Under the pieces are notes generated by a model. That model did no database searches. It was not told the DNA's origin and worked only from the letters and a program-made list of their open reading frames with translations. From the UHGV virus genome UHGV-0109738: a DNA stretch of 64,000 nucleotides. One strand, given 5' to 3'. The translations under genes were made by a program, and so were the position numbers. Numbering within the stretch: position 1 is the first letter of the stretch; each line of letters starts with the position of its first letter. Source of the DNA: a virus. Positions 15,201-55,266 of this stretch are shown here, in pieces.

Positions 15201-17219
15201 AAAATCATAACTGTAATTCGTAGTTTCGTAGCTTTTAACCACAGCGCCGTCGGCGTTATACACGCGAATCTCAAAGGTCAGGCGACGCGTTGTCGTCTGT
15301 GTTTCCCATGTTGCGCGACATTGAACCGTTTCAGATCCAACGTTTAACACCTTCAGATTTTCAATGTTCGGCACGCGGAAGTGATTAAGCGTGTCGTTAT
15401 TGATCTCGAAGATTGCGCCATTATCGACTACGGCCTGCTTATGTGGATCATGCTGTGCGGCCTCGATGGTGTATACGCTGTTATTTTCTGTTTCTGCTAC
15501 GCTGGTGATTCGACATAAAACGGGTTTTGCTGCGTTGGTTGATACAGCAAAAACAGTACCGTTACGAATCCATGCCGGGGCGGATGCAAGGGTAATTTTG
15601 TTTCCGCTAACTCCAGTGATCTGGTGTTTTTTAAACTTGCCATCGCTATCAAGCAGGCTGATCGTATCTCCAGCGGAGATATATTTGGCATCAACCTTGT
15701 CTACAGTTATTACTTTGCCATTGTTCGCAACGATGCGACCGCCTAAGCGAGCGCCTGCGCGGTTATTGTCCAGGATTTCGATAATATCACCTGGCGTAAA
15801 GTGAATCGCGTCACGGGCCATTTTAAACGTGAATTTTGACGGCTCGCGTTTTGCTGTTTCTATCAGCCATTTGCCAGCGCGGTACGCTTGCCCGCGTGAC
15901 GTGCAACCGAAAGCCTCTAGCGTGGTTTCGTTATAACCATCGCGGGCGATCAGTTCATCGTCTGCCACGTATTCTTTTGATTGCTCCCAGCCGTTTTCCG
16001 GGTCAGTCCATGACACAATCACGGCGTTGTAAGATTCTGCGCGGGCAATACTTGAACGAGTAAACGCGCCATCAACTACGTTTGCATTTGTAATGGTGGC
16101 GATTGGATCTTGTGGCGCATCAATCATCACGGTAAGGCGCTGCCCGTCCCATAATGCAATACCACGGAACATGCCTGCAATATTATCCAGTAAGTCGCGT
16201 GCGCTAATTTGTTCCGTGATGTAAGCATTAAGCGTCATGCGAGGTTCAAAGCCGCCGTAACCATCGCTAACCAACTGATCGCAGTATTGGGAAAGCGTAT
16301 ATAATGCGCCATCGTCAACATCAATGTAACCAGCGTGGCGAGCAAGTCCGAAACGTTCATTTTTAACCAGATACCGGAAAAGCCATGCAGGGTTATTGGT
16401 GTACGCTTTTTTAAATCCACCAAGCCATAAACCGGAATACGTGCGCGTTTCAGGGTTATAGTTGTCCGGCACATCAACAATCAGTCCGCGCAGATGATAA
16501 GTGCGGGCAGGAGTATCAGTATACTGGTCATGGTCAATTACCGCGCCAGCTACAGCGGTATGAGGGTAAGACAGGTTATCGTCGATTATCTCGCTGTAAC
16601 TGCTCCACCGCGTATCATTACGAAGAAGATCGCTTTTGCTGTCTGGCGTTACGCGACGAACGCGAATATCAAACGGCTTTTCATCCGGTGCGTTGATAAC
16701 GTGAGCTTCCAGGTATTCACCACTCTGTTTACCAGGCCCGATCGTAATGTCTTTAACCAGCGACCACGTCGATGATGATGATGGCTTAACATCAACCATT
16801 AACATGACTGACGTGTTATATTGATTGCCCTTATCATCTGACTGAACTAGAGCATCAACGCCAACATTCAATCTAACGCGGGTGACGTTTGGGTCTGAAA
16901 CGGTCCTGATTATTGGCGTATCGTGAGTTACCTTCGCATTGACAATAACAGTTGATTCAATGGCGTTAAAACCGTTAATCGGTGATTGGTCAGCTGTGCC
17001 ATTGCGCCACGCTATACTTACCCCAGGGATTGACGTATTTCCGTTGGCGTCAGTAACAGGCGTGTCATTAAGCATCACATCATTTAATGGCGCTTTCTGG
17101 TTTACCGGGCCGTATATCGGCCCCTCGCTGAGAATGTCTAAAACACGATAAAACTGTTTATGATACAGGTTATCGTTCAATAAATGTGGTGTTTTGGCTT
17201 TGCCGCCGCCGCTACTCAT
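12249..17219 (-). CDS. J: host specificity / central tail fibre protein J (expanded, 1656 aa)
   Basis: N-terminal and C-terminal regions align with lambda J (e.g. RVRRVTPDSKSD..WSSYSEIID); about 500 aa repeat-rich coiled-coil insertion. Confidence 0.9.
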   Translation of the reverse strand: MSSGGGKAKTPHLLNDNLYHKQFYRVLDILSEGPIYGPVNQKAPLNDVMLNDTPVTDANGNTSIPGVSIAWRNGTADQSPINGFNAIESTVIVNAKVTHDTPIIRTVSDPNVTRVRLNVGVDALVQSDDKGNQYNTSVMLMVDVKPSSSSTWSLVKDITIGPGKQSGEYLEAHVINAPDEKPFDIRVRRVTPDSKSDLLRNDTRWSSYSEIIDDNLSYPHTAVAGAVIDHDQYTDTPARTYHLRGLIVDVPDNYNPETRTYSGLWLGGFKKAYTNNPAWLFRYLVKNERFGLARHAGYIDVDDGALYTLSQYCDQLVSDGYGGFEPRMTLNAYITEQISARDLLDNIAGMFRGIALWDGQRLTVMIDAPQDPIATITNANVVDGAFTRSSIARAESYNAVIVSWTDPENGWEQSKEYVADDELIARDGYNETTLEAFGCTSRGQAYRAGKWLIETAKREPSKFTFKMARDAIHFTPGDIIEILDNNRAGARLGGRIVANNGKVITVDKVDAKYISAGDTISLLDSDGKFKKHQITGVSGNKITLASAPAWIRNGTVFAVSTNAAKPVLCRITSVAETENNSVYTIEAAQHDPHKQAVVDNGAIFEINNDTLNHFRVPNIENLKVLNVGSETVQCRATWETQTTTRRLTFEIRVYNADGAVVKSYETTNYSYDFYGIDSGTYSLGIRGRNDTGMKGAESIVDLVIGAPAAPIGVNWVPGVFQATVYPISRTTLTTDTSYEFYYSGETQITDPASVTTKAQYTGRGHQWTFGGMNTGHIYYVYVRTRNAFGVSDFVEASGKPTENFDEITDYVTKDVMNSKQFKEMVGDIKDLGDRTDLIESATNDLKTATDNLKTATDNLTNITDDLRTETDNLTIETGSIKADTDTLKKETEDLYKKVKENADDIGQHESRIDSLEVSSEKVGSELAQAKASLQNASLALINNSLAQTNTRVTLTAQYKKGRTETKAEIDRIDNVIAEEKKATAESLETITAEMNVMDTNLKGQISNVQRAVADEASARAEAINGVNASISNLDKKTDASVNRLDRAIADETSARTQAISDVNASISTLDKKTDASVKRLDKAISDETQARSDAITVVKADLTTLENNTNASVSRLDQAIADESSTRAQAISGISASLGSVKSEVDKNSDEIVQAKAGLQNASLALINNSMAQSKMSTVIEAKYRKGQRKTKAEIARVDTAIADEASARAEAISNVNASVSSLESKTDASVSRLDKAIADEASARAEAISGVNASISTLDSKVTSNVTRMDKAIADEKNARTDAISSLNSSLTSTINSKVSEVSTALSTHETSSAEKFGQISASFDDVNSSITEWSQAMATADEALSTRIDQLKVTINGNTTAIETTSKALTDFKGNVDASYSIKIATDKNGMKYATGMSLGLTGSGTNVQSQCIFLVDRFVLMTAAGGSYQTPFYVTNGACYIRDAWIRDASITTAKIAQQIQSTNYKAGSAGWMLNKNGNAEFNNVTVRGTVYATSGKFTGEIQATSGKFKGTVEAKSFVGDVANMGVGPDRVLGHNGSYSATITYKDSTDNALTKSVMLMATISLMSGEYRSTYNVTFSCGDKNKTISYYVPYGGCTLTVQCAFSGLKASDIIGKIYCPQTSSSEGYAYCTALYSPTMIVARGTGSFRTSTTA
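13380..14220. repeat. intragenic tandem repeats within J (coiled-coil repeat region)
   Basis: Exact 43-bp repeat gctaatagcttctgcgcgtgcgctcgcctcatctgcgattgct at 13473 and 13582; protein repeats RLDKAIADExSARxxAIS..NASIS..KTDASV. Confidence 0.7.
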
Positions 17220-19159: not shown

Positions 19160-19181
19160 TTTTGTGATCTGCGTCACGCTA
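19160..19181. promoter_or_regulatory. CRP-consensus-like site TGTGA-N6-TCACG in divergent intergenic region
   Basis: cattTTGTGAtctgcgTCACGc; homologous to 11810-11831. Confidence 0.35.
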
Positions 19182-19799: not shown

Positions 19800-20285
19800 A
19801 TGAAATGGTACAACATCTTTACTTATAATGAAGGGAAATTATTCTGGAAGATACCAACAAGCGGTAGAATTACCAACGGCAAGGAAGCCGGAAGTTTGCA
19901 CAACGGGTATATTGTTATCTGTGTGCAAAATAAAAAGTATAAGGCACACAACATAATTTGGGAAATGCACAACGGCCCGATCCCAGAAGGGTATGTGATT
20001 GACCATATAAACCATATAAGGAGTGATAACAGAATATAAAATCTAAGAATGATAACAAAACAAGAAAACATGAAAAATATGCCGTTATCCAGAAGGAATA
20101 AGAGCGGGTGCATTGGCGTATGGTGGAATGAAGCGAATAAAAAATGGATTGTAAGAGTGATGATTAGTGGGGTGTATCGGCATATAGGGTGTTTTAATAG
20201 CTACCTTGATGCGTGTAACGCCTCAAAAGAAGCGCACGAAATCGGAGGGTACTATAAAGAACATGGCGCGGCGCAATCACAGTGA
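19800..20285 (+). pseudogene. HNH homing endonuclease with AP2-type DNA-binding domain, interrupted by a single in-frame TAA
   Basis: Two track ORFs (19800-20039, 20049-20285) are in the same frame separated by TAA at 20037-20039; motifs HNGYIVI..AHNIIWE..IDHINHIRSDNRI then NLR..QENMKNM and AP2-like SGCIGVWWNEANKKWIVRV. Confidence 0.7.
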
Positions 20286-21192: not shown

Positions 21193-21216
21193 TTTACGCG
21201 CTTCTACGCGAAAAAT
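21193..21216. promoter_or_regulatory. conserved motif TTTACGCG-N4-TACGCGAAAAAT (copy A) upstream of M
   Basis: tttacgcgcttctacgcgaaaaat; second copy at 33325-33348. Confidence 0.4.
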
Positions 21217-21327
21217 GAGATCTTTGTCACAATGATTATAGCTAGTTTACAAAATGGCTTCACGTAGCATGCAACAAGATGTATATAGAAAGCAAGAAGA
21301 AAGCAGTACCAACGAAGGAGGCCCAAA

Positions 21328-24420: not shown

Positions 24421-24723
24421 GATTTAACCTCATGCAAAATGTGATCTATGCATCTATTTTATACAAAATGTCTTTATTTTAACGATACCGTTTTGTATAG
24501 ATGATGTAGAGAAAGATAGAAGAGATGCAGGAAGGCCGGATGTCCCGGAGGAAGTGAAAGAGGATAAGAAAATGAGAAACGTAAACTACCGTCCCAACGA
24601 ATATGAACGCTATGCGGACCTTATCGAAGAAATGTTAAAAGCACTTAAAAAATAAACAATATGCGTGTATAACTAAGTTAAAGGAAGCATTTAGCAAATC
24701 AGAATAATTACAGGGGGTTGATT

Positions 24724-39628: not shown

Positions 39629-39910
39629 TTATTCTCCTTCGTAAAGAGTTGCCACCAGTTCGGCATCTGTTAGCGTGTTATAATCTGTATAAAACCCGCA
39701 ACGCATAAGTGAAGAAAGGCCAGCCACTTTGCACCACATAGGGGTCGATTCGCTCAAATATTCATTCTCCCTTTTTTCGCTGTATTCCAGTTCATAAAAC
39801 CGACTATTGTTAACACCCTCAATTACACGGCTGTATGTGCCATCAAGCCTACTAACTCCGCGCCATAGTCTGATCACAACCATAATTTCTACTCCGTTTG
39901 ATGGGGCCAT
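39629..39910 (-). CDS. hypothetical protein (93 aa)
   Basis: ORF track; start lies within a GGGGCC/GGCCCC hairpin. Confidence 0.4.
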   Translation of the reverse strand: MAPSNGVEIMVVIRLWRGVSRLDGTYSRVIEGVNNSRFYELEYSEKRENEYLSESTPMWCKVAGLSSLMRCGFYTDYNTLTDAELVATLYEGE

Positions 39911-39922
39911 TCGGCCCCGTGT

Positions 39923-40063
39923 TTATTCTTCTTCTCCTCCTCTAAATCCTAAGCACTCCGCGTATTCGTCAATGCTTAATGCTTCTTCACCTGGTGCCAA
40001 TACTTCAAAGTAGCGGGCGTATAGTTCGAAAACCCAGGCCGGATATTTAGCGTTAGCGTTCAT
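39923..40063 (-). CDS. small hypothetical protein (46 aa)
   Basis: Manual translation; AAGGGG SD. Confidence 0.35.
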   Translation of the reverse strand: MNANAKYPAWVFELYARYFEVLAPGEEALSIDEYAECLGFRGGEEE

Positions 40064-40072
40064 GGTTCCCCC

Positions 40073-40351
40073 TTATGCCATGCGTGCAAATTCAAGTGAT
40101 TTGCATTCGTAGTCTTCCTCTGCCTGTTCGATGACTGCCATCATCATTTCGTTTGCGTTGTTGAATGCGTTGCTTTGTGCGAACTTGTCGGCTCCACCTT
40201 CTTCTTCGAACTCCGCGTTGTTTGCTGCAATGTAGTGATATTCGATGTTGTTCAGGTAAGGGCTTGCAGCGTGTGCTGGGTCTTCTTTCTCCACCATCTC
40301 CCAAAATGCGTTTAAGCGAGATTCGACTTCTTTGTTAATCCAGCGTTTCAT
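40073..40351 (-). CDS. hypothetical acidic protein (92 aa)
   Basis: ORF track. Confidence 0.45.
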   Translation of the reverse strand: MKRWINKEVESRLNAFWEMVEKEDPAHAASPYLNNIEYHYIAANNAEFEEEGGADKFAQSNAFNNANEMMMAVIEQAEEDYECKSLEFARMA

Positions 40352-40429
40352 TTTTCTACCCTCCGCATCGTTCTCTCTTCAGCTTCTTTATAACAAAATG
40401 GCACTGCCGAAACAATGCCATTTCGTAAA

Positions 40430-40451
40430 CCTTGTGATACAGATCACATTT
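40430..40451. promoter_or_regulatory. perfect CRP-consensus site TGTGA-N6-TCACA
   Basis: ccttgTGTGAtacagaTCACAttt in the only sizeable intergenic gap (40352-40449) of the late small-gene block; adjacent 8-bp inverted repeat aaatggca/tgccattt. Confidence 0.45.
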
Positions 40452-40674
40452 ACGTTTCTTCCGTAAAAGTAACCTTCATCGCCCCATCCGAACTACGGAC
40501 AACATAACGACCAATACCGCCTAGCGGCCCTGCATACCATAAGTGACCGTAAGTGTCAGTTACGACGATAAACGGAAATTTAGGAGACAATCCCATCGGT
40601 TTTTCAGCCGTATACTGTGCGCCTTCTTCAAAACAGCCTAATTTCGATTCGTTACACGTTAAAATCATTTTCAT
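40450..40674 (-). CDS. small protein, paralog family A member 1 (74 aa)
   Basis: Shares F-x-x-G-x-x-Y ... TD-x-x-G-x-LW pattern with three adjacent genes. Confidence 0.5.
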   Translation of the reverse strand: MKMILTCNESKLGCFEEGAQYTAEKPMGLSPKFPFIVVTDTYGHLWYAGPLGGIGRYVVRSSDGAMKVTFTEET

Positions 40675-40910
40675 ACCCCTACATACGAAAACGCAGCAAA
40701 AGCACCACCACCAGCACGCGCATAAACAAGTGCCGTGCCATACCCCATCTTATAAAATCGCCATAACTGACCCTGGTCGTCAGTAATGGCATGAATATAT
40801 TCCTGATCCTTTGCGTCAACCAATGCCGCGTCAACCTCGTAGATCTTGCCATTCTTAAAAAACGCGCTGCATCGTGAGTATGTGCACTGGTATCTATGTT
40901 TCCGATTCAT
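40671..40910 (-). CDS. small protein, paralog family A member 2 (79 aa)
   Basis: FFKNGKIYEV..ITDDQGQLWRFY; ATGA overlap with member 1. Confidence 0.5.
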   Translation of the reverse strand: MNRKHRYQCTYSRCSAFFKNGKIYEVDAALVDAKDQEYIHAITDDQGQLWRFYKMGYGTALVYARAGGGAFAAFSYVGV

Positions 40911-40920
40911 AGCACCTCAC

Positions 40921-41178
40921 TTATTCCGGTTTACTGCCTTCGCGGGCGCAAAACTCCGCGATCTCACGGAAATCATGCACTATGCGATAAATATACAAAC
41001 CAGCGGCGTTATTGATATGGCTAACATAAGCGAAATAAACTTTATCATCATCGCCAGTTATCGCCATTGCACCATCACCGCCCGGTGCGCCGTGGAGTTG
41101 AACGCCGCAATAGATCTTCCCTTCTTCAAAAATATTGCGGTCGCGCGTCTGCAATACCTCAAAATATAAATGTTTCAT
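40921..41178 (-). CDS. small protein, paralog family A member 3 (85 aa)
   Basis: FEEGKIYCGV..ITGDDDKVYFAY; AAGGGG SD. Confidence 0.5.
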   Translation of the reverse strand: MKHLYFEVLQTRDRNIFEEGKIYCGVQLHGAPGGDGAMAITGDDDKVYFAYVSHINNAAGLYIYRIVHDFREIAEFCAREGSKPE

Positions 41179-41188
41179 TGTTGCCCCT

Positions 41189-41401
41189 TTAATAACGTTC
41201 AAAGCTGGCAGCAAAACCTACACCGGATATTTCACCGCCTTCATAGCTCGGCCTGAATACCCATATTTCGTCATGATTATCAATCAAGGCAAGGCAATTA
41301 CTCATTGTGTGTGCTTCATTGCCATAAACGATGTGAACGTCATAAATACTCCCAATCGTGAAAACACTGTCATTGCTTGAGTATGAGCATTTAACTTGCA
41401 T
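41189..41401 (-). CDS. small protein, paralog family A member 4 (70 aa)
   Basis: FTIGSIYDVH..LIDNHDEIWVF. Confidence 0.5.
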   Translation of the reverse strand: MQVKCSYSSNDSVFTIGSIYDVHIVYGNEAHTMSNCLALIDNHDEIWVFRPSYEGGEISGVGFAASFERY

Positions 41402-41646
41402 CAGAAAACCCCTTTATAATCGACCGTGTATTTTGCTATCAGATTCCAGTCGCAGTAATTAAGCATGTTGCGAGGCTGCCAGCCTTTCATCCCGACCGCC
41501 CGCCGCGCAGCGTGACGGCGATAATCATCGTTATAGTCAGCTATGCACCACGGCTGGAGAACAAACATATAATTTGCTTCATTAACCAGGATAGCCACCA
41601 GCTTTCCTGTTGCCTTGTCTTTTGCCCTGAAATAATTCACTTTCAT
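41401..41646 (-). CDS. small hypothetical protein (81 aa)
   Basis: ORF track; tightly packed co-directional. Confidence 0.45.
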   Translation of the reverse strand: MKVNYFRAKDKATGKLVAILVNEANYMFVLQPWCIADYNDDYRRHAARRAVGMKGWQPRNMLNYCDWNLIAKYTVDYKGVF

Positions 41647-44120: not shown

Positions 44121-44310
44121 CCTTCACCTCGCGACGATAGATTTCTACTGGCTTAACCGGAATAGCGTTAAAATCACCTTCATCCAGTGCGGCAATAAAC
44201 GTTAGCGCCAACCGTGCTTCAACACCGCTTAAATACTTGCACCATGCCTCACCGTTATAATCTTTAAAAAGAATAATCACTTTTTTCATGTTTATCTCTT
44301 GTTGTTTCAT
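44110..44310 (-). CDS. hypothetical protein (66 aa)
   Basis: ORF track; begins right at Q stop, leaving no room for a lambda-like pR' gap. Confidence 0.4.
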   Translation of the reverse strand: MKQQEINMKKVIILFKDYNGEAWCKYLSGVEARLALTFIAALDEGDFNAIPVKPVEIYRREVKDEA

Positions 44311-45032
44311 TATTCACCCCGTGTCACTCGTTTAATTTCGTTATCAGCCCGCGCCTCTTCTTTGAACAATTCAGTAATGGCGTCTTCATAGAAAGCACGG
44401 TATTTCTTCCACCACGTTGATCGGCTTACCGGAAATACAAGCTGATTAACCGCACGCCGGACAAGATCTACAGGGAAACGCGAGTACCCGCGCCCGCCGC
44501 AATGCTGGCACGTTTTGAACGCTGGCATTTCCGCTGCTTCACTGGCTGCTTTATCCGGTATCTCGCCGCGCCCTTTGCATCGTTTACAATGATTGCGAAC
44601 TTTTCCATGCCCCTTGCATTTTTTGCAAAGGTGTTTTTCTCCGTAGTCGTCAAACGTAAATTTATATCCGCCGCAATCCATACAAGTTTTTTCTGTCGCG
44701 GCACTCTGGCAGTAATCCCGAAACGCGAAAACGGCAACAAGAATAATAAGATCATTGCGTTTGTCCTCGTCCAACTCCATGACGTATTCGTAATCTTTTG
44801 CCATAGCTCTTAAACGCTCTGTAAGCAAAACTACGGCCCTGTGTTTTTCGGCTTGCGATAATTCCATCTTCCCTAAAAAAGCGCTATAACCAAGCTCTAC
44901 GCGCGATTGCGCCATACCTGCTGCGGTTAGTGCATCAGTAGTATTAAGCGAGTCTGGGGACGTGCCCCGGCTTTCATCTGACAAACGCGGTGATTTTGGG
45001 AGGTGGAATTTAAGAATAGATTCCAAATTCAT
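44310..45032 (-). CDS. Q: late antitermination protein Q (lambda type)
   Basis: N-terminus MNLESILKFHLPKSPRLSDESRGTSPDSL..AAGMAQS aligns with lambda Q; Cys-rich zinc-binding region. Confidence 0.85.
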   Translation of the reverse strand: MNLESILKFHLPKSPRLSDESRGTSPDSLNTTDALTAAGMAQSRVELGYSAFLGKMELSQAEKHRAVVLLTERLRAMAKDYEYVMELDEDKRNDLIILVAVFAFRDYCQSAATEKTCMDCGGYKFTFDDYGEKHLCKKCKGHGKVRNHCKRCKGRGEIPDKAASEAAEMPAFKTCQHCGGRGYSRFPVDLVRRAVNQLVFPVSRSTWWKKYRAFYEDAITELFKEEARADNEIKRVTRGE

Positions 45033-45618: not shown

Positions 45619-46220
45619 GCTGCCTTTCTCCTTAAGGCGTCCAATTTAGCCTGATAGACTTTTATGATCTCCTTGCATTCTTCGATCGCCCATTTATGAG
45701 TTTCGTTGTTGTTCTCCAGCGCTTCCACCCTGGCAAGGCCAATTTTCCTAATCAGCGCTGGGCGATATGCTTCTATGTTGCCATCTAATGTCTGGTTGCA
45801 GTGCCTGCATTGTTTGTGGCAATTATCCTCGTTAAAACGAAGGTGCCCGGCGGCGGCAACCGTTCTATAGTGTCCGGCATCTGCTCCGCATTGTTCGTAA
45901 TAGTAAGTCCCGCATGATATGCACGGCTGACCCGCGTCACGTTCGCGGATATAGGCATTAAATACCGCTTGTGCCTGCTTCAACCAATAACTACGCGGAT
46001 TTAACTGCTTCCGCTTCCGGTTGCGTTCTTCCCGCTGGCTATCACGGCGTTTCTTCCGTTCCATAGCCTTCATAGCCTTCTCACGGTCGCGGCATAGCTG
46101 ATCAAACTTCAGCTCTTCCAGACACTCATCACTGCACCACGTTTGATTGTGATATTTAGGCTCAAAAAAAACGCCGCAGCACTTGCAACGGCGTCTTATT
46201 GGTTTTTTAGGGTTCTGCAT
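45615..46220 (-). CDS. ninG: NinG/Rap recombination protein
   Basis: Aligns with lambda NinG (RRRCKCC..; PRSYWLKQAQ; CISCGT..DAGHYRT; LRFNE.N.HKQC). Confidence 0.85.
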   Translation of the reverse strand: MQNPKKPIRRRCKCCGVFFEPKYHNQTWCSDECLEELKFDQLCRDREKAMKAMERKKRRDSQREERNRKRKQLNPRSYWLKQAQAVFNAYIRERDAGQPCISCGTYYYEQCGADAGHYRTVAAAGHLRFNEDNCHKQCRHCNQTLDGNIEAYRPALIRKIGLARVEALENNNETHKWAIEECKEIIKVYQAKLDALRRKAA

Positions 46221-46234
46221 AAAAACCACCCCTA

Positions 46235-46411
46235 TTATTTTTGATTCTCTGTTTCGTTCAGCCTTTCGGCGTGTCCGGCCCTTAGCCAATGATCTAAGCA
46301 TTCGTTGCACTCGTTACAGCCTCCTTTCTTTGTGCTGCATACATTGCACATTGCACGCATGACGCTTTCTCGTTCATAGTCGTCATGCCATTGGTAATTA
46401 TCAAAAGACAT
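46235..46411 (-). CDS. NinF-like small zinc-finger protein
   Basis: MSFDNYQWHDDYERESVMRA..C-rich; AGGGAGG SD. Confidence 0.55.
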   Translation of the reverse strand: MSFDNYQWHDDYERESVMRAMCNVCSTKKGGCNECNECLDHWLRAGHAERLNETENQK

Positions 46412-46519
46412 AATGCTCCCTCCCTTTAAGGTGATTTCTACGCATTTCAGCGCTGCCGGATTTTTAAAGAGCATTTCGTTTGCTTGAAGTATACAAAATG
46501 GATACGCCAGAACAAGGTG

Positions 46520-46561
46520 AATGGCGCCATTATGTGATCCACATCACGCAATGGCGCCATT
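46520..46561. promoter_or_regulatory. twin 12-bp perfect palindromes AATGGCGCCATT flanking a CRP-like TGTGA-N6-TCACG
   Basis: aatggcgccatt at 46520 and 46550, 30 bp apart; centre atgTGTGAtccacaTCACGc. Confidence 0.45.
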
Positions 46562-46570
46562 TTGTAAATT

Positions 46571-47335
46571 TCAGTCCGGTAAAACGCGGTTAAGCGTAGT
46601 ACGATTGATGGCCCGGTCGTTAGCCAGGAATACAGCACGGGCAAAGCCGCGCGGCGTTAGTGAGCGGATCATCTTAGTGCGTTTCGACTTTCCTCCTAAC
46701 TTCGCGTGCTGTTTGCTGTCTTCCCATTCATCCGGCATAGGTACAGGCCGGAATAGCGGCTGCTTAAATCCATTCCCGCACCAGATACAAGTTTTCTTCG
46801 TGTATGCGTCGCGGTCGGCGATGTATTCCGGGAAAGCAGGATGTTTGTCGTCTTCCGGCAGGTAGCCACCGTAAGCGCACGGATTGAAGATAAAATCCGG
46901 CTTACGCCATAACGTTGACAGTGCGCCCACCGGATTTTCCACCATCCACGGGACGTGATACATGTCAGCCAGCGTTTCTACCAGTTTTGCGTTATATGCC
47001 GCCTTCACCTGGAAGTCAGGATCTTTTTCACGCTTGCTGGCAAACCAACGAGCGTCGGACACGGCTAGATGGTCGCATGGCGGGAAGGCCAGAATAATGT
47101 CAGGATCTGGATAAACAGACAAATCAGGGGAGAACATCACCAGGAAATGGCTGTCAATCCATACGTTAACGTATTCAATATTCGGATGAATGATTTTTAC
47201 GCCTTCATAGTCGCCGTGGTTAGCGCCGTCATAGTTGAAGCAATAACACTTATAGCCAGCGTCAGCCCAATCTTTAACGGCGTACCCGCTGCCGTCGTAC
47301 AACGACCACACCACCCAATTTTTAAGCCCGCTCAT
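46571..47335 (-). CDS. putative DNA (cytosine-5)-methyltransferase-like protein
   Basis: Motifs resembling C5-MTase I (SLYDGSG), IV (FPPCDHLAVS) and VI (ENPVG); 254 aa. Confidence 0.45.
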   Translation of the reverse strand: MSGLKNWVVWSLYDGSGYAVKDWADAGYKCYCFNYDGANHGDYEGVKIIHPNIEYVNVWIDSHFLVMFSPDLSVYPDPDIILAFPPCDHLAVSDARWFASKREKDPDFQVKAAYNAKLVETLADMYHVPWMVENPVGALSTLWRKPDFIFNPCAYGGYLPEDDKHPAFPEYIADRDAYTKKTCIWCGNGFKQPLFRPVPMPDEWEDSKQHAKLGGKSKRTKMIRSLTPRGFARAVFLANDRAINRTTLNRVLPD

Positions 47336-48309: not shown

Positions 48310-48849
48310 TTAGTCATTATTTGCGCCTCTCGCGTATAGCTCTTTACGTGTTATCTGCGTGAAAATACATTCATGTCTGCACCGTGGATGCCAGATCAAG
48401 AACAAGCTCCCTTTATTGTTTCCGCTTGCTGGTTTCCCTGTCGCGGCATTTATAAAAGCCAGCCGCCCGCGCGTAATTAATCGGCATTCGTTTGCCGTCT
48501 CCACGCCGTTCATAAACCAGTTAACAGAAATGTCAGCGGGCAATAACATTACACAGCCAATGTGATTTCGTTGATGTTCAAGCGCCGCCTTATCAACGAA
48601 TGGCCCCGGATTAGAATATGGCGGATTCATCCAGACATACTCACCAGGCATCGCCACCGCTCCCCACGGATAATGGAGCGTGTCCATTTCTTCGGTTATA
48701 TATCGCGGTATTAATGCGTTTGCCTTGTTTGCCGCCACATCCGCGACGAATTCGAATTCCAGATCCATTCCTCTAAAAACAGGTTTCGGCGTCTGCCATA
48801 GGTCTTTTATTTCTTTCGGCGTGTTGCTGCCGCCGTAATCATTTTTCAT
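48310..48849 (-). CDS. phage-type DNA N6-adenine methyltransferase (Dam family)
   Basis: Catalytic NPPY motif (VWMNPPYSN); size 179 aa typical of phage Dam. Confidence 0.7.
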   Translation of the reverse strand: MKNDYGGSNTPKEIKDLWQTPKPVFRGMDLEFEFVADVAANKANALIPRYITEEMDTLHYPWGAVAMPGEYVWMNPPYSNPGPFVDKAALEHQRNHIGCVMLLPADISVNWFMNGVETANECRLITRGRLAFINAATGKPASGNNKGSLFLIWHPRCRHECIFTQITRKELYARGANND

Positions 48850-53897: not shown

Positions 53898-54314
53898 GTT
53901 AATGAGCGGCTTAACATCTTTCAACTAATCCCGCAATCATCGCCGTTCCCGGCGTGACCTTGCTCACTCCAAGCAAGCTGACTCGTCGCCTTGCGTGCGG
54001 TTTCGTGGGGGATGTAACGCTTTAAACACCCCATGCGCCTTGTTATCAGTGCCGCTTTCGGTCCCCCATCGGGGAGTTACTCCACGGTTGACAAGGTGTT
54101 AAGCCTGATTTTTAAAGTGCCAGGAAGTTGCTTTTGTTACCTGCGACCTTCCTTTGACTCGCAATATACGCCCCGTAAAACATCGAGTCAATCCATTTTG
54201 TATACTTTTTTAAAATATTTTATATGCTATTGATATTTAAACAATAAATAACGTTTTCTGTTTACGTTTTGGCGTTTTTAAGGCAAAGAAAAGCCGCCAT
54301 CCGGCGGCTAATGT

Positions 54315-54962: not shown

Positions 54963-55266
54963 GTCGCTACCCTATAACCTCAAAAAGTTTGATGCAAGTC
55001 ACAAAACGTGTATTTTAAGCCTTGATCTTAAAATTCCATTTTGTAAACTTGCAGACAAGGTAAGGCCATACTTGCAAAGACGCAAGGAAAAAGATACGGA
55101 AGGCACAAAAAGGCACTTACCTTATGCTCTTTAAAAATCCGGTGTCGCTGCGAAGCGAAAAACAAATATCACGCAACGGCGGGATCTGTTGAGCGGTCAG
55201 TCACTGCTATCTAATGCTAATGGGATGCCCGCCCGCGCGTTCACTCTAACCATAGGAGAAAATGCG

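Follow-up and report, generated by a model that had tools for sequence, protein, structure and literature searches.

A t4-homologous, terminator-like hairpin with a CRP-consensus-like core beside nutR2 in an mEp021-type prophage, and the origin of its twin GGCGCC palindromes

Virus genome UHGV-0109738 was analysed over a stretch of 64,000 nucleotides (hereafter the window), in which a 42-bp near-perfect palindrome occupies the gap between a C5-cytosine methyltransferase-like gene and ninF. This element is the homolog of the predicted terminator TERM_4/t4 of coliphage mEp021, lies just upstream of the nut site nutR2, and has been perfected in the window by three substitutions. The reading favored here, which we hold to be reasonably probable, is that its transcript forms a stem-loop acting as a terminator or insulator, and that the top of the same palindrome is a predicted site for the host protein CRP serving an internal promoter. 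The element would be an ordinary regulatory hairpin, plausibly overlapped by a CRP-dependent promoter, and not a methylation target. In relation to published work, it is a new sequence variant of an annotated, predicted-only terminator in a described phage group, and the neighboring nut site is already published. The reading as a CRP site and promoter, together with a phage-wide motif presented below, comprises predictions that are undescribed in PMC11893012.

The GenBank record of mEp021 (MH706966) contains the entry 'terminator TERM_4; score=79' (20087-20120) precisely where the window element aligns, in the interval from the cytosine methyltransferase gene to ninF; a TransTermHP-style annotation is the source of this score. 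The two phages share the site, preceded by the cytosine methyltransferase gene and followed by nutR2 and ninF, as well as the stem, the CRP-like core, a promoter-like motif, boxA, and boxB. They differ in that the window has a T to C change in its 5' arm and both tail changes (TT to CA), three substitutions in all, of which mEp021 has one; in the window, these changes extend the stem, remove the larger part of the U-tract, and give rise to the twin palindromes. An mEp021-group phage encodes an N-like antiterminator and depends on Nus factors; in the mEpimmI group, the N-like protein Gp17 acts at three nut sites, and nutR2 is located downstream of a putative cytosine methyltransferase gene (PMC11893012). 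In that paper on the mEpimmI group, the term CRP is absent and the word 'promoter' appears once, for the Ptac vector promoter. In the window, the boxA-like 19-mer of nutR2, ATGCTCTTTAAAAATCCGG, recurs near 55122 on the plus strand, ahead of the repressor gene, which is the expected place of nutL; a near-identical sequence, GCACTTTAAAAATCAGG, precedes the N-like gene near 54120, the expected place of nutR1. The boxB stem of distant relatives shows a G.U to C-G change. A search of IMG/VR with a nutR2 pattern found no contig carrying nutR2 without the hairpin.

A first-pass annotation of this DNA had pointed to two copies of a 12-bp palindrome, AATGGCGCCATT, which sequence reading and a pattern search confirmed as exact copies with a start-to-start distance of 30 bp, bracketing ATGTGATCCACATCACGC (46532-46549). 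A search of the 64-kb window allowing two mismatches returned no third copy with fewer than two. Since the chance expectation for a given 12-mer in the window is about 0.004 (64000/4^12), two exact copies 30 bp apart are not a product of chance. A repeat finder identified both 12-mers as the outer parts, or lower stem, of a single inverted repeat, with arms of 19 nt each that are 89% complementary and a 4-nt loop (Table 1). The 159-bp gap that houses the element runs from the stop codon of the minus-strand methyltransferase-like gene to the ATG of ninF. On the minus strand, which is the coding strand, the hairpin begins 10 nt past the stop codon of this dcm-like gene and is followed by about 45 nt, nutR2, a Shine-Dalgarno sequence, and ninF. 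The palindromes and their location were described correctly by the first-pass annotation, which did not recognise that the genes lie on the minus strand, that the two copies are arms of one RNA hairpin homologous to t4, and that nutR2 lies beyond it.

The origin of the twin palindromes was traced in a comparative set of 52 homologous loci (39 distinct sequences) gathered by three IMG/VR pattern scans and from seven phage records. GGCGCC is present in both arms only in the window and in one identical IMG/VR contig (L031). It is found in neither arm of 36 of the 39 distinct homologs and in one arm of a further contig (L024); the other homologs read GGCGTC...GGCGCTTTT. Among the 34 complete Escherichia coli genomes carrying the element, none matches the window closely enough to share the twin-palindrome form. 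Compared with the consensus, the window has a T to C change in the 5' arm (GGCGTC to GGCGCC) and a TT to CA change in the tail (GCGCTTTT to GCGCCATT). These changes can be ordered along a path in which mEp021 has the first tail change, L024 additionally has the arm change, and the window has all three. The stability of the 48-nt hairpin rises accordingly from -20.2 kcal/mol in the consensus to -23.4 in mEp021, -26.1 in L024, and -28.4 in the window, each step adding or strengthening one pair. As the lower stem is formed by AAUGGCG and CGCCAUU, its completion necessarily yields two identical self-complementary 12-mers. The twin palindromes are thus a by-product of three stem-perfecting substitutions and represent a derived, rare variant. 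The cost of this perfection is a U-tract that shrinks from TTTTCACC to CATTCACC, and the stronger stem combined with the poorer U-tract may result in altered, probably weaker, intrinsic termination in the window. The 'correction' of quasipalindromes by template switching is a known mutational mechanism, and it shares with the present case that all three changes make an imperfect inverted repeat more perfect. It differs in that the intermediates, mEp021 and L024, show that the changes arose singly, and ordinary point mutations, favored by selection as they strengthened the stem, account for them just as well. In either case, the locus offers a clean natural example of a quasipalindrome perfected stepwise.

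An 81-nt fold of the window element reaches -33.3 kcal/mol (z -5.2). The common form of the family reads, in transcript orientation, TTTACAAAATGGCGTCATTG(C/T)GTGAT-NNNN-(A/G)TCACATAATGGCGCTTT(T), and its RNA folds into a stem of 16 bp, three of them G.U pairs, which carries an unpaired 4-nt loop and is followed by UUUU; in the window, the stem has 19 bp. As in a terminator, a stable, G+C-containing stem-loop is predicted for the transcript, in sense orientation where a transcription unit ends. The two arms hardly vary across the comparative set, and neighboring positions vary freely: the 3-6 bases past the T-run and the first part of the following spacer are variable, and GTATCCATTTTGTATACTTCAA and the nut site are invariant again. 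In the stem, 90-95% of the cells pair, compared with 27-54% after shifting the partners by 1-3 columns. The one-sided changes observed all keep the pair (U.G to C-G, G.U to A-U, U-A to U.G) or mend a C.A mismatch to U-A. Moreover, the hairpin is stabler in the sense RNA in 39 of 39 homologs, with a mean of -21.4 against -12.8 kcal/mol (a difference of 8.6), because each of its three asymmetric positions forms a G.U pair in that RNA. This strand asymmetry points to an RNA-level role, although it reflects only three inherited positions. Past the stem, the majority of relatives continue with TTTT or with TTT and a mixed sequence.

Another RNA-level explanation is that the stem serves processing or stability, either as an RNase III target or as a 3'-end-protecting stem comparable to lambda sib. 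The long stem (16 bp in relatives, 19 bp in the window) with its -20 to -28 kcal/mol, its position directly past a stop codon, and the poor U-tract of the window would suit such a function. The TTT(T) kept right after the stem in most relatives and the terminator score in the mEp021 record argue for termination instead, and a processing hairpin is accordingly judged unlikely.

The loop (46539-46542), which coincides with the center of the CRP-like site, is far more variable than its flanks, taking at least 12 sequences among 39 homologs that are otherwise 90% identical; the forms seen include GTGG, GCGG, ATGG, GAAT, TTAT, and others. An interpretation of the hairpin as boxB or a nut site was rejected because its loop is not conserved, unlike the purine-rich loop expected of a boxB, and the actual nutR2 lies 45-80 nt downstream, at 46441-46476. 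A DnaA-box-like TGATCCACA in the loop was dismissed on account of the same hypervariability. Short open reading frames called over the hairpin in some phage records are not coding, since 1-nt indels occur among the relatives. Rfam, searched at a permissive threshold over 46100-46900, returned chance-level matches only, and two scans of species-representative genomes yielded no matches to the hairpin.

The top of the palindrome reads, on the minus strand, CGTGA-TGTGGA-TCACA. The consensus site of CRP spans 22 bp with a TGTGA-N6-TCACA core, and the window agrees with this core at 9 of 10 positions. All 39 distinct homologs keep xGTGA-N6-TCACA, and the bases between the half-sites vary, the central 4 nt being hypervariable; 14 of the 39 relatives have the perfect TGTGA half (10/10 core). 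With at most one mismatch, TGTGA-N6-TCACA occurs 7 times in the window against 2.0 expected. Downstream of this site lie a predicted -35 and a predicted -10 element, in a stretch conserved as TTGT...CCATTTTGTATACT, and the sequence upstream of nutR2 aligns with a pL-like promoter of the window through both hexamers. The predicted start would fall near 46481, with boxA from 46472 (minus strand), placing the CRP-like center at about -59.5 to -61.5 relative to a start that is itself only predicted; class I sites are centered near -61.5, or farther upstream by one or more helical turns, on the face of the DNA that the polymerase occupies. The first-pass annotation had spoken of a CRP-like core and of a possible operator for a dimeric regulator; core invariance in the 39 homologs and a lac-type class I spacing lend partial support to this alternative, and CRP itself would be the predicted ligand. 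Thus, the CRP-like core may be real, and a CRP-activated internal promoter feeding nutR2 is plausible. An antisense promoter through CCATTTTGTAAATT on the plus strand was also considered and rejected, since the CRP site would then lie at about -36.5 and no -35 is present.

The arrangement has a familiar counterpart in the host. In E. coli K-12, lacP1 was checked and reads TGTGAGTTAGCTCACT, 17 nt, TTTACA. Both sequences have a TGTGA-N6-TCACx 16-mer 17 bp upstream of a weak -35 hexamer, and a good -10; the two hexamers of the window are predictions. In contrast to lacP1, the window has a spacer of 16 nt instead of 18, its site is embedded in a hairpin, and its CRP dependence is a prediction. A phage precedent is the pir promoter of T1, where host cAMP (cyclic AMP)-CRP acts directly and represses (PMC6737242). 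The predicted case in the window would share with T1 pir the action of host CRP on a phage regulatory promoter; it differs in that CRP is a repressor there, that the phage is unrelated, and that T1 pir has no described overlap with a terminator.

These features also permit a purely DNA-level explanation, in which the palindrome is an operator bound by CRP, and possibly by another dimeric regulator at its outer arms, and the RNA hairpin plays no role. The invariant half-sites and the lac-type spacing that recurs at other promoters of the phage are compatible with it, as are a stem without covariation and a weak T-tract. On the other hand, the symmetry extends 18-21 bp from the center, past the 22-bp CRP consensus, and the other CRP-like sites of the phage lack extended arms. 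Furthermore, the asymmetric positions are all sense-strand G.U, making that strand's hairpin 8.6 kcal/mol stabler, which DNA binding would not select, and the outer-arm sequence has no other copy in the window. An operator acting at the DNA level only is therefore considered rather unlikely.

It is important to note that several observations weigh against the favored combination of a terminator-like hairpin with a CRP-dependent promoter. In the mEpimmI group, terminators t1, t2, and t5 have been experimentally shown, and t3 and t4 are predictions only (PMC11893012). The T-tract is modest in relatives (TTTTCACC) and cut to CATTCACC in the window; a simple terminator scan flagged the hairpin neither in the window nor in mEp554, and the ARNold-based annotations of five mEp phages (mEp010, 554, 013, 515, and 044) do not list it. 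The covariation analysis found no two-sided (compensatory) stem substitutions, so that covariation does not prove an RNA structure, and two relatives (L020 and L023) have stem mismatches that are uncompensated. As for the promoter, the left half-site in the window is CGTGA and not TGTGA, the predicted -35 agrees at only 3 of 6 positions (the -10 at 5 of 6), and a promoter scan did not report the proposed promoter upstream of nutR2, which fell below the threshold of the tool.

The first-pass annotation had further proposed that the GGCGCC palindromes might be a control or target site of the adjacent methyltransferase. Its assignment of the neighboring gene as a putative C5-methyltransferase is reasonable. 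The 254-aa product gave no Pfam, NCBIfam, or PDB sequence match; in PHROGs, it belongs to phrog_757 'DNA methyltransferase' (E 7e-87), its family alignment contains invariant P-C and E-N-P motifs, and an AlphaFold model (predicted local distance difference test score, pLDDT, 88.5) has its best Foldseek matches to the catalytic domains of DNMT3A/3B (E 2e-7). In this model, the fold resembles the DNMT3 catalytic domain and appears to have a very small region at the place of the target-recognition domain. The protein is short; members of its family are mostly 227-250 aa long and are widespread in T1-like and mEp-like phages (1178 matches).

The idea of recognition or regulatory sites for this enzyme draws on its C5-methyltransferase fold, on GGCGCC being a known restriction-modification word, and on its absence elsewhere in the window. 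The count suggested by the first-pass annotation indeed gave two sites in the window, both in the twin palindromes, against 14.2 expected from shuffles; in the prophage part, 19.6 were expected under a fourth-order Markov model, an under-representation of about tenfold or more. However, mEp021 has 1 site against 17.5 expected, and 100 kb of E. coli K-12 have 1 against 41.1, where GGCGCC is the most avoided 6-bp palindrome. As the word is equally scarce in the host, its scarcity is a host-wide compositional feature, not specific to the enzyme and uninformative about it. Nearly all homologs with the same gene have GGCGTC and GGCGCT in place of GGCGCC, so the site is not kept where the enzyme is kept. 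Nor does the element depend on the enzyme gene: in L032 (IMGVR_UViG_2695420423_000006; 5100-5700), the methyltransferase gene is missing, and the motif, hairpin, and nutR2 come directly after a membrane-protein gene. The junction is situated some 25 nt ahead of the TTTACAAAATGG motif, indicating that hairpin and nutR2 travel with the downstream module. Finally, restriction-modification genes have their control sites upstream, whereas the element is found on the downstream side of the gene. A methyltransferase site is thus very improbable, and the notion of a methylation or restriction feature can be dropped.

The promoter-like arrangement beside nutR2 is not isolated. A CRP-like 16-mer followed after exactly 31-32 nt by CC(A/G)TTTTGTA is found at four loci of the window (listed as modules in Table 1) and at two loci of mEp021. 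At these loci, the gap from the 16-mer to the -35 is 17-18 nt, and the intervening sequences share little beyond TTG, so that simple recent duplication does not account for the modules. Gaps of 20 nt (19163-19178) and 27 nt (21216-21231) are seen in another two modules, the latter being one helical turn further out. This recurrence suggests a phage-wide CRP regulon. As side observations, CRP-consensus-like sites at class I-type gaps of 17, 18, 20, or 27 nt from a -35-like hexamer precede several promoter-like sequences, among them the pL-like one ahead of nutL and those of accessory genes located between tail genes. Such sites are also present at 24440-24455 in the window and at 16519-16534 in mEp021 (L060).

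A second motif is the 12-mer T(A/T)TACAAAATGG (one mismatch allowed), for which the window has 14 matches where 1.24 were expected, nearly all of them intergenic; the motif is also conserved in mEp021. On the opposite strand, this 12-mer consists of CCATTTTG followed by TA(T/A)A(C/A)(T/A), which corresponds to the end of a spacer and a -10 hexamer. Read forwards, it falls at about -37 to -48 of a pR-like promoter (TTGACT-17-TATATT near 54190-54160) and of other promoter-like sequences. The motif, which is not described in PMC11893012, appears to be the -10 region and the upstream A-rich element of a family of predicted phage promoters, and it would provide a handle for mapping the promoters of mEp021-type phages. 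In two places, at 24460-24499 and 40390-40429, copies face each other with 16 nt in between (TATACAAAATGT-N16-CCGTTTTGTATA and TTTACGAAATGG-N16-CCATTTTGTTATA). Such facing copies make the promoter-like sequences palindromic, and these could function as operators or fire both ways. Each facing pair is preceded, at a distance of 3-4 nt, by a CRP-like site.

The motif also bears on the possibility that the palindrome is a neutral quasipalindrome or a small repeated mobile palindromic element devoid of function. The flanking copies TTTACAAAATGG and CCATTTTGTATA form an inverted pair around it, which would fit a mobile unit; covariation analysis of the outer helix between them detected no two-sided changes and thereby does not prove that helix. 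The flanking motif is explained by its putative role as -10 region and upstream element of the promoter family, the arms are conserved in 39 distinct sequences while their neighbors vary, and there is one copy per genome. Repetitive extragenic palindromic (REP) or miniature inverted-repeat transposable element (MITE) sequences would be found in many copies at non-homologous sites, and two family-specific IMG/VR patterns matched the homologous locus only. The hairpin-arm IMG/VR pattern additionally hit eight unrelated contigs, in each by a chance match to one arm without a second arm. A neutral or mobile origin is deemed extremely improbable.

Taken as a regulatory hairpin with an overlapping promoter, the locus could operate as follows. 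The hairpin would terminate or insulate transcripts from the accessory genes that lie upstream of it (ipe, dam-like, membrane protein, and dcm-like). The palindrome top would be a class I site for host CRP, 17 bp upstream of TTGTTC-16 nt-TATACT, and CRP would activate an internal promoter whose transcript starts about 10 nt ahead of the boxA of nutR2. In the absence of Gp17, these transcripts would end at the hairpin and T8 run located within the beginning of ninG (46190-46164), whereas Gp17 would allow them to extend to rusA and Q. A promoter of its own for nutR2, together with a terminator in ninG, would explain the need for a third nut site, and the lac-spaced CRP-consensus site and promoter-like sequence after a terminator-like hairpin are offered as a candidate explanation for that site in mEp021-type phages. 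In its widest and clearly more tentative form, which is held to be less likely than not, the proposal is a two-level switch: as RNA, the element would stop the accessory operon, and as DNA, its CRP site would fire a third early promoter dedicated to nutR2, making ninG, rusA, and Q dependent on both cAMP-CRP and Gp17. The locus would then be a node of an mEpimmI CRP regulon of at least 5-6 promoters, including the pL-like promoter and those of accessory ('moron') genes, with a shared spacing and CCATTTTG-TAxAxT. If true, late-gene activation in a coliphage group common in the human gut would be tied to the carbon and cAMP state of the host.

In the nin region of lambda, terminators tR2-tR4 are read through by N-modified polymerase. 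The window shares with lambda the presence of intrinsic-terminator-like hairpins among nin genes upstream of Q and an N-like antiterminator, without sequence homology. Unlike lambda, the window has a separate nutR2 after the hairpin and a promoter-like sequence in between.

Table 1. Features of the window relevant to the t4-homologous element, with strand (a dot marks features given without strand) and remarks.
Feature	Position	Strand	Remarks
42-bp near-perfect palindrome/RNA stem-loop	46520..46561	-	arms 46561-46543 and 46538-46520; loop 46542-46539
Palindrome copy 1, AATGGCGCCATT	46550..46561	.	base of hairpin 5' arm (transcript orientation); relatives have AATGGCGTCATT
Palindrome copy 2, AATGGCGCCATT	46520..46531	.	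base of 3' arm; relatives have AATGGCGCTTTT (stem end and U-tract)
CRP-consensus-like site	46533..46548	.	hairpin top; minus strand CGTGA-TGTGGA-TCACA, 9/10 core positions
Predicted -35, TTGTTC	46510..46515	-	17 nt past CRP-like 16-mer; TTGT invariant, next bases vary
Predicted -10, TATACT	46488..46493	-	preceded by CCATTTTG (motif copy 46490-46501); 16-nt spacer to predicted -35
Motif copy, TTTACAAAATGG	46557..46568	-	3 nt past methyltransferase stop codon; gives A-tract and first stem bases
nutR2	46441..46476	-	boxA-like ATGCTCTTTAAAAATCCGG (46476-46458), then boxB-like GCGCTGAAATGCG (46453-46441)
ninF	46235..46411	-	58 aa from ATG 46411; open frame reaches upstream to 46474 in the window
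Terminator-like hairpin + T8	46164..46190	-	inside first codons (5' end) of ninG; terminator scan; candidate stop signal
254-aa protein, C5-cytosine methyltransferase fold	46571..47335	-	mEp021 gp33 homolog; dcm-like
Dam-family methyltransferase gene	48310-48849	-	Pfam PF05869
Q-like antiterminator gene	44310-45032	-	
CRP-to-promoter module	46533	-	twin-palindrome locus
CRP-to-promoter module	40433-40448		perfect AAATGTGATCTGTATCACA
CRP-to-promoter module	54988-55003		upstream of pL-like TTGATC-16-TAAACT preceding nutL
CRP-to-promoter module	50120		decayed copy
T(A/T)TACAAAATGG motif positions	19248, 21177, 21246, 24460, 24488, 32108, 40418, 46490, 46557, 54193, 55036, 57679, 58819, 61747		

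All genes around the element are on the minus strand, which carries the early genes. By transcription, their order is the Dam-family methyltransferase gene, two small genes, the gene of the 254-aa protein, the 159-bp gap, ninF, ninG, rusA, and the Q-like antiterminator gene. The region is 85-95% identical to temperate coliphages of the mEp021 group (mEp010, 554, 013, 021, 515, 044, and MagusPhagus), and this level of identity also holds for prophages in 34-35 of the 5426 complete E. coli genomes. Collinearity of the window with mEp021, in reverse orientation, extends from about 13340 to 64000. ARNold terminators are annotated in mEp010, 554, 013, 515, and 044 at the place homologous to the candidate stop signal in ninG.

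In most relatives, the nutR2 region forms a 15-codon frame with a TGA stop just ahead of the ninF Shine-Dalgarno sequence. In the window (46412-46474), the TGA is changed to TTA and the frame enters ninF, giving 79 aa instead of 58. This extension is probably biologically meaningless because the 'frame' is the nut site itself.

Several observations concern other parts of the window. Its left end (1-8000) is 100% identical to several E. coli chromosomes and encodes cytolethal distending toxin type I genes (cdtB and cdtC) and a RepL-like gene, pointing to a second mobile element beside the mEp-like prophage; the G+C content of 1-9000 is only 38.6%. The segment 56960-57320 matches many staggered positions of mEp021 (8091-9218 and 40142-41428), which correspond to repeats, each about 190 bp long, within the gp12- and gp66-like zinc-ribbon-domain genes. 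Between the Q-like cluster and the lysis genes, about 1.5 kb (39896-41400) have no mEp021 counterpart; this segment contains several small acidic open reading frames and has the perfect CRP-consensus promoter module (40433) at its start.

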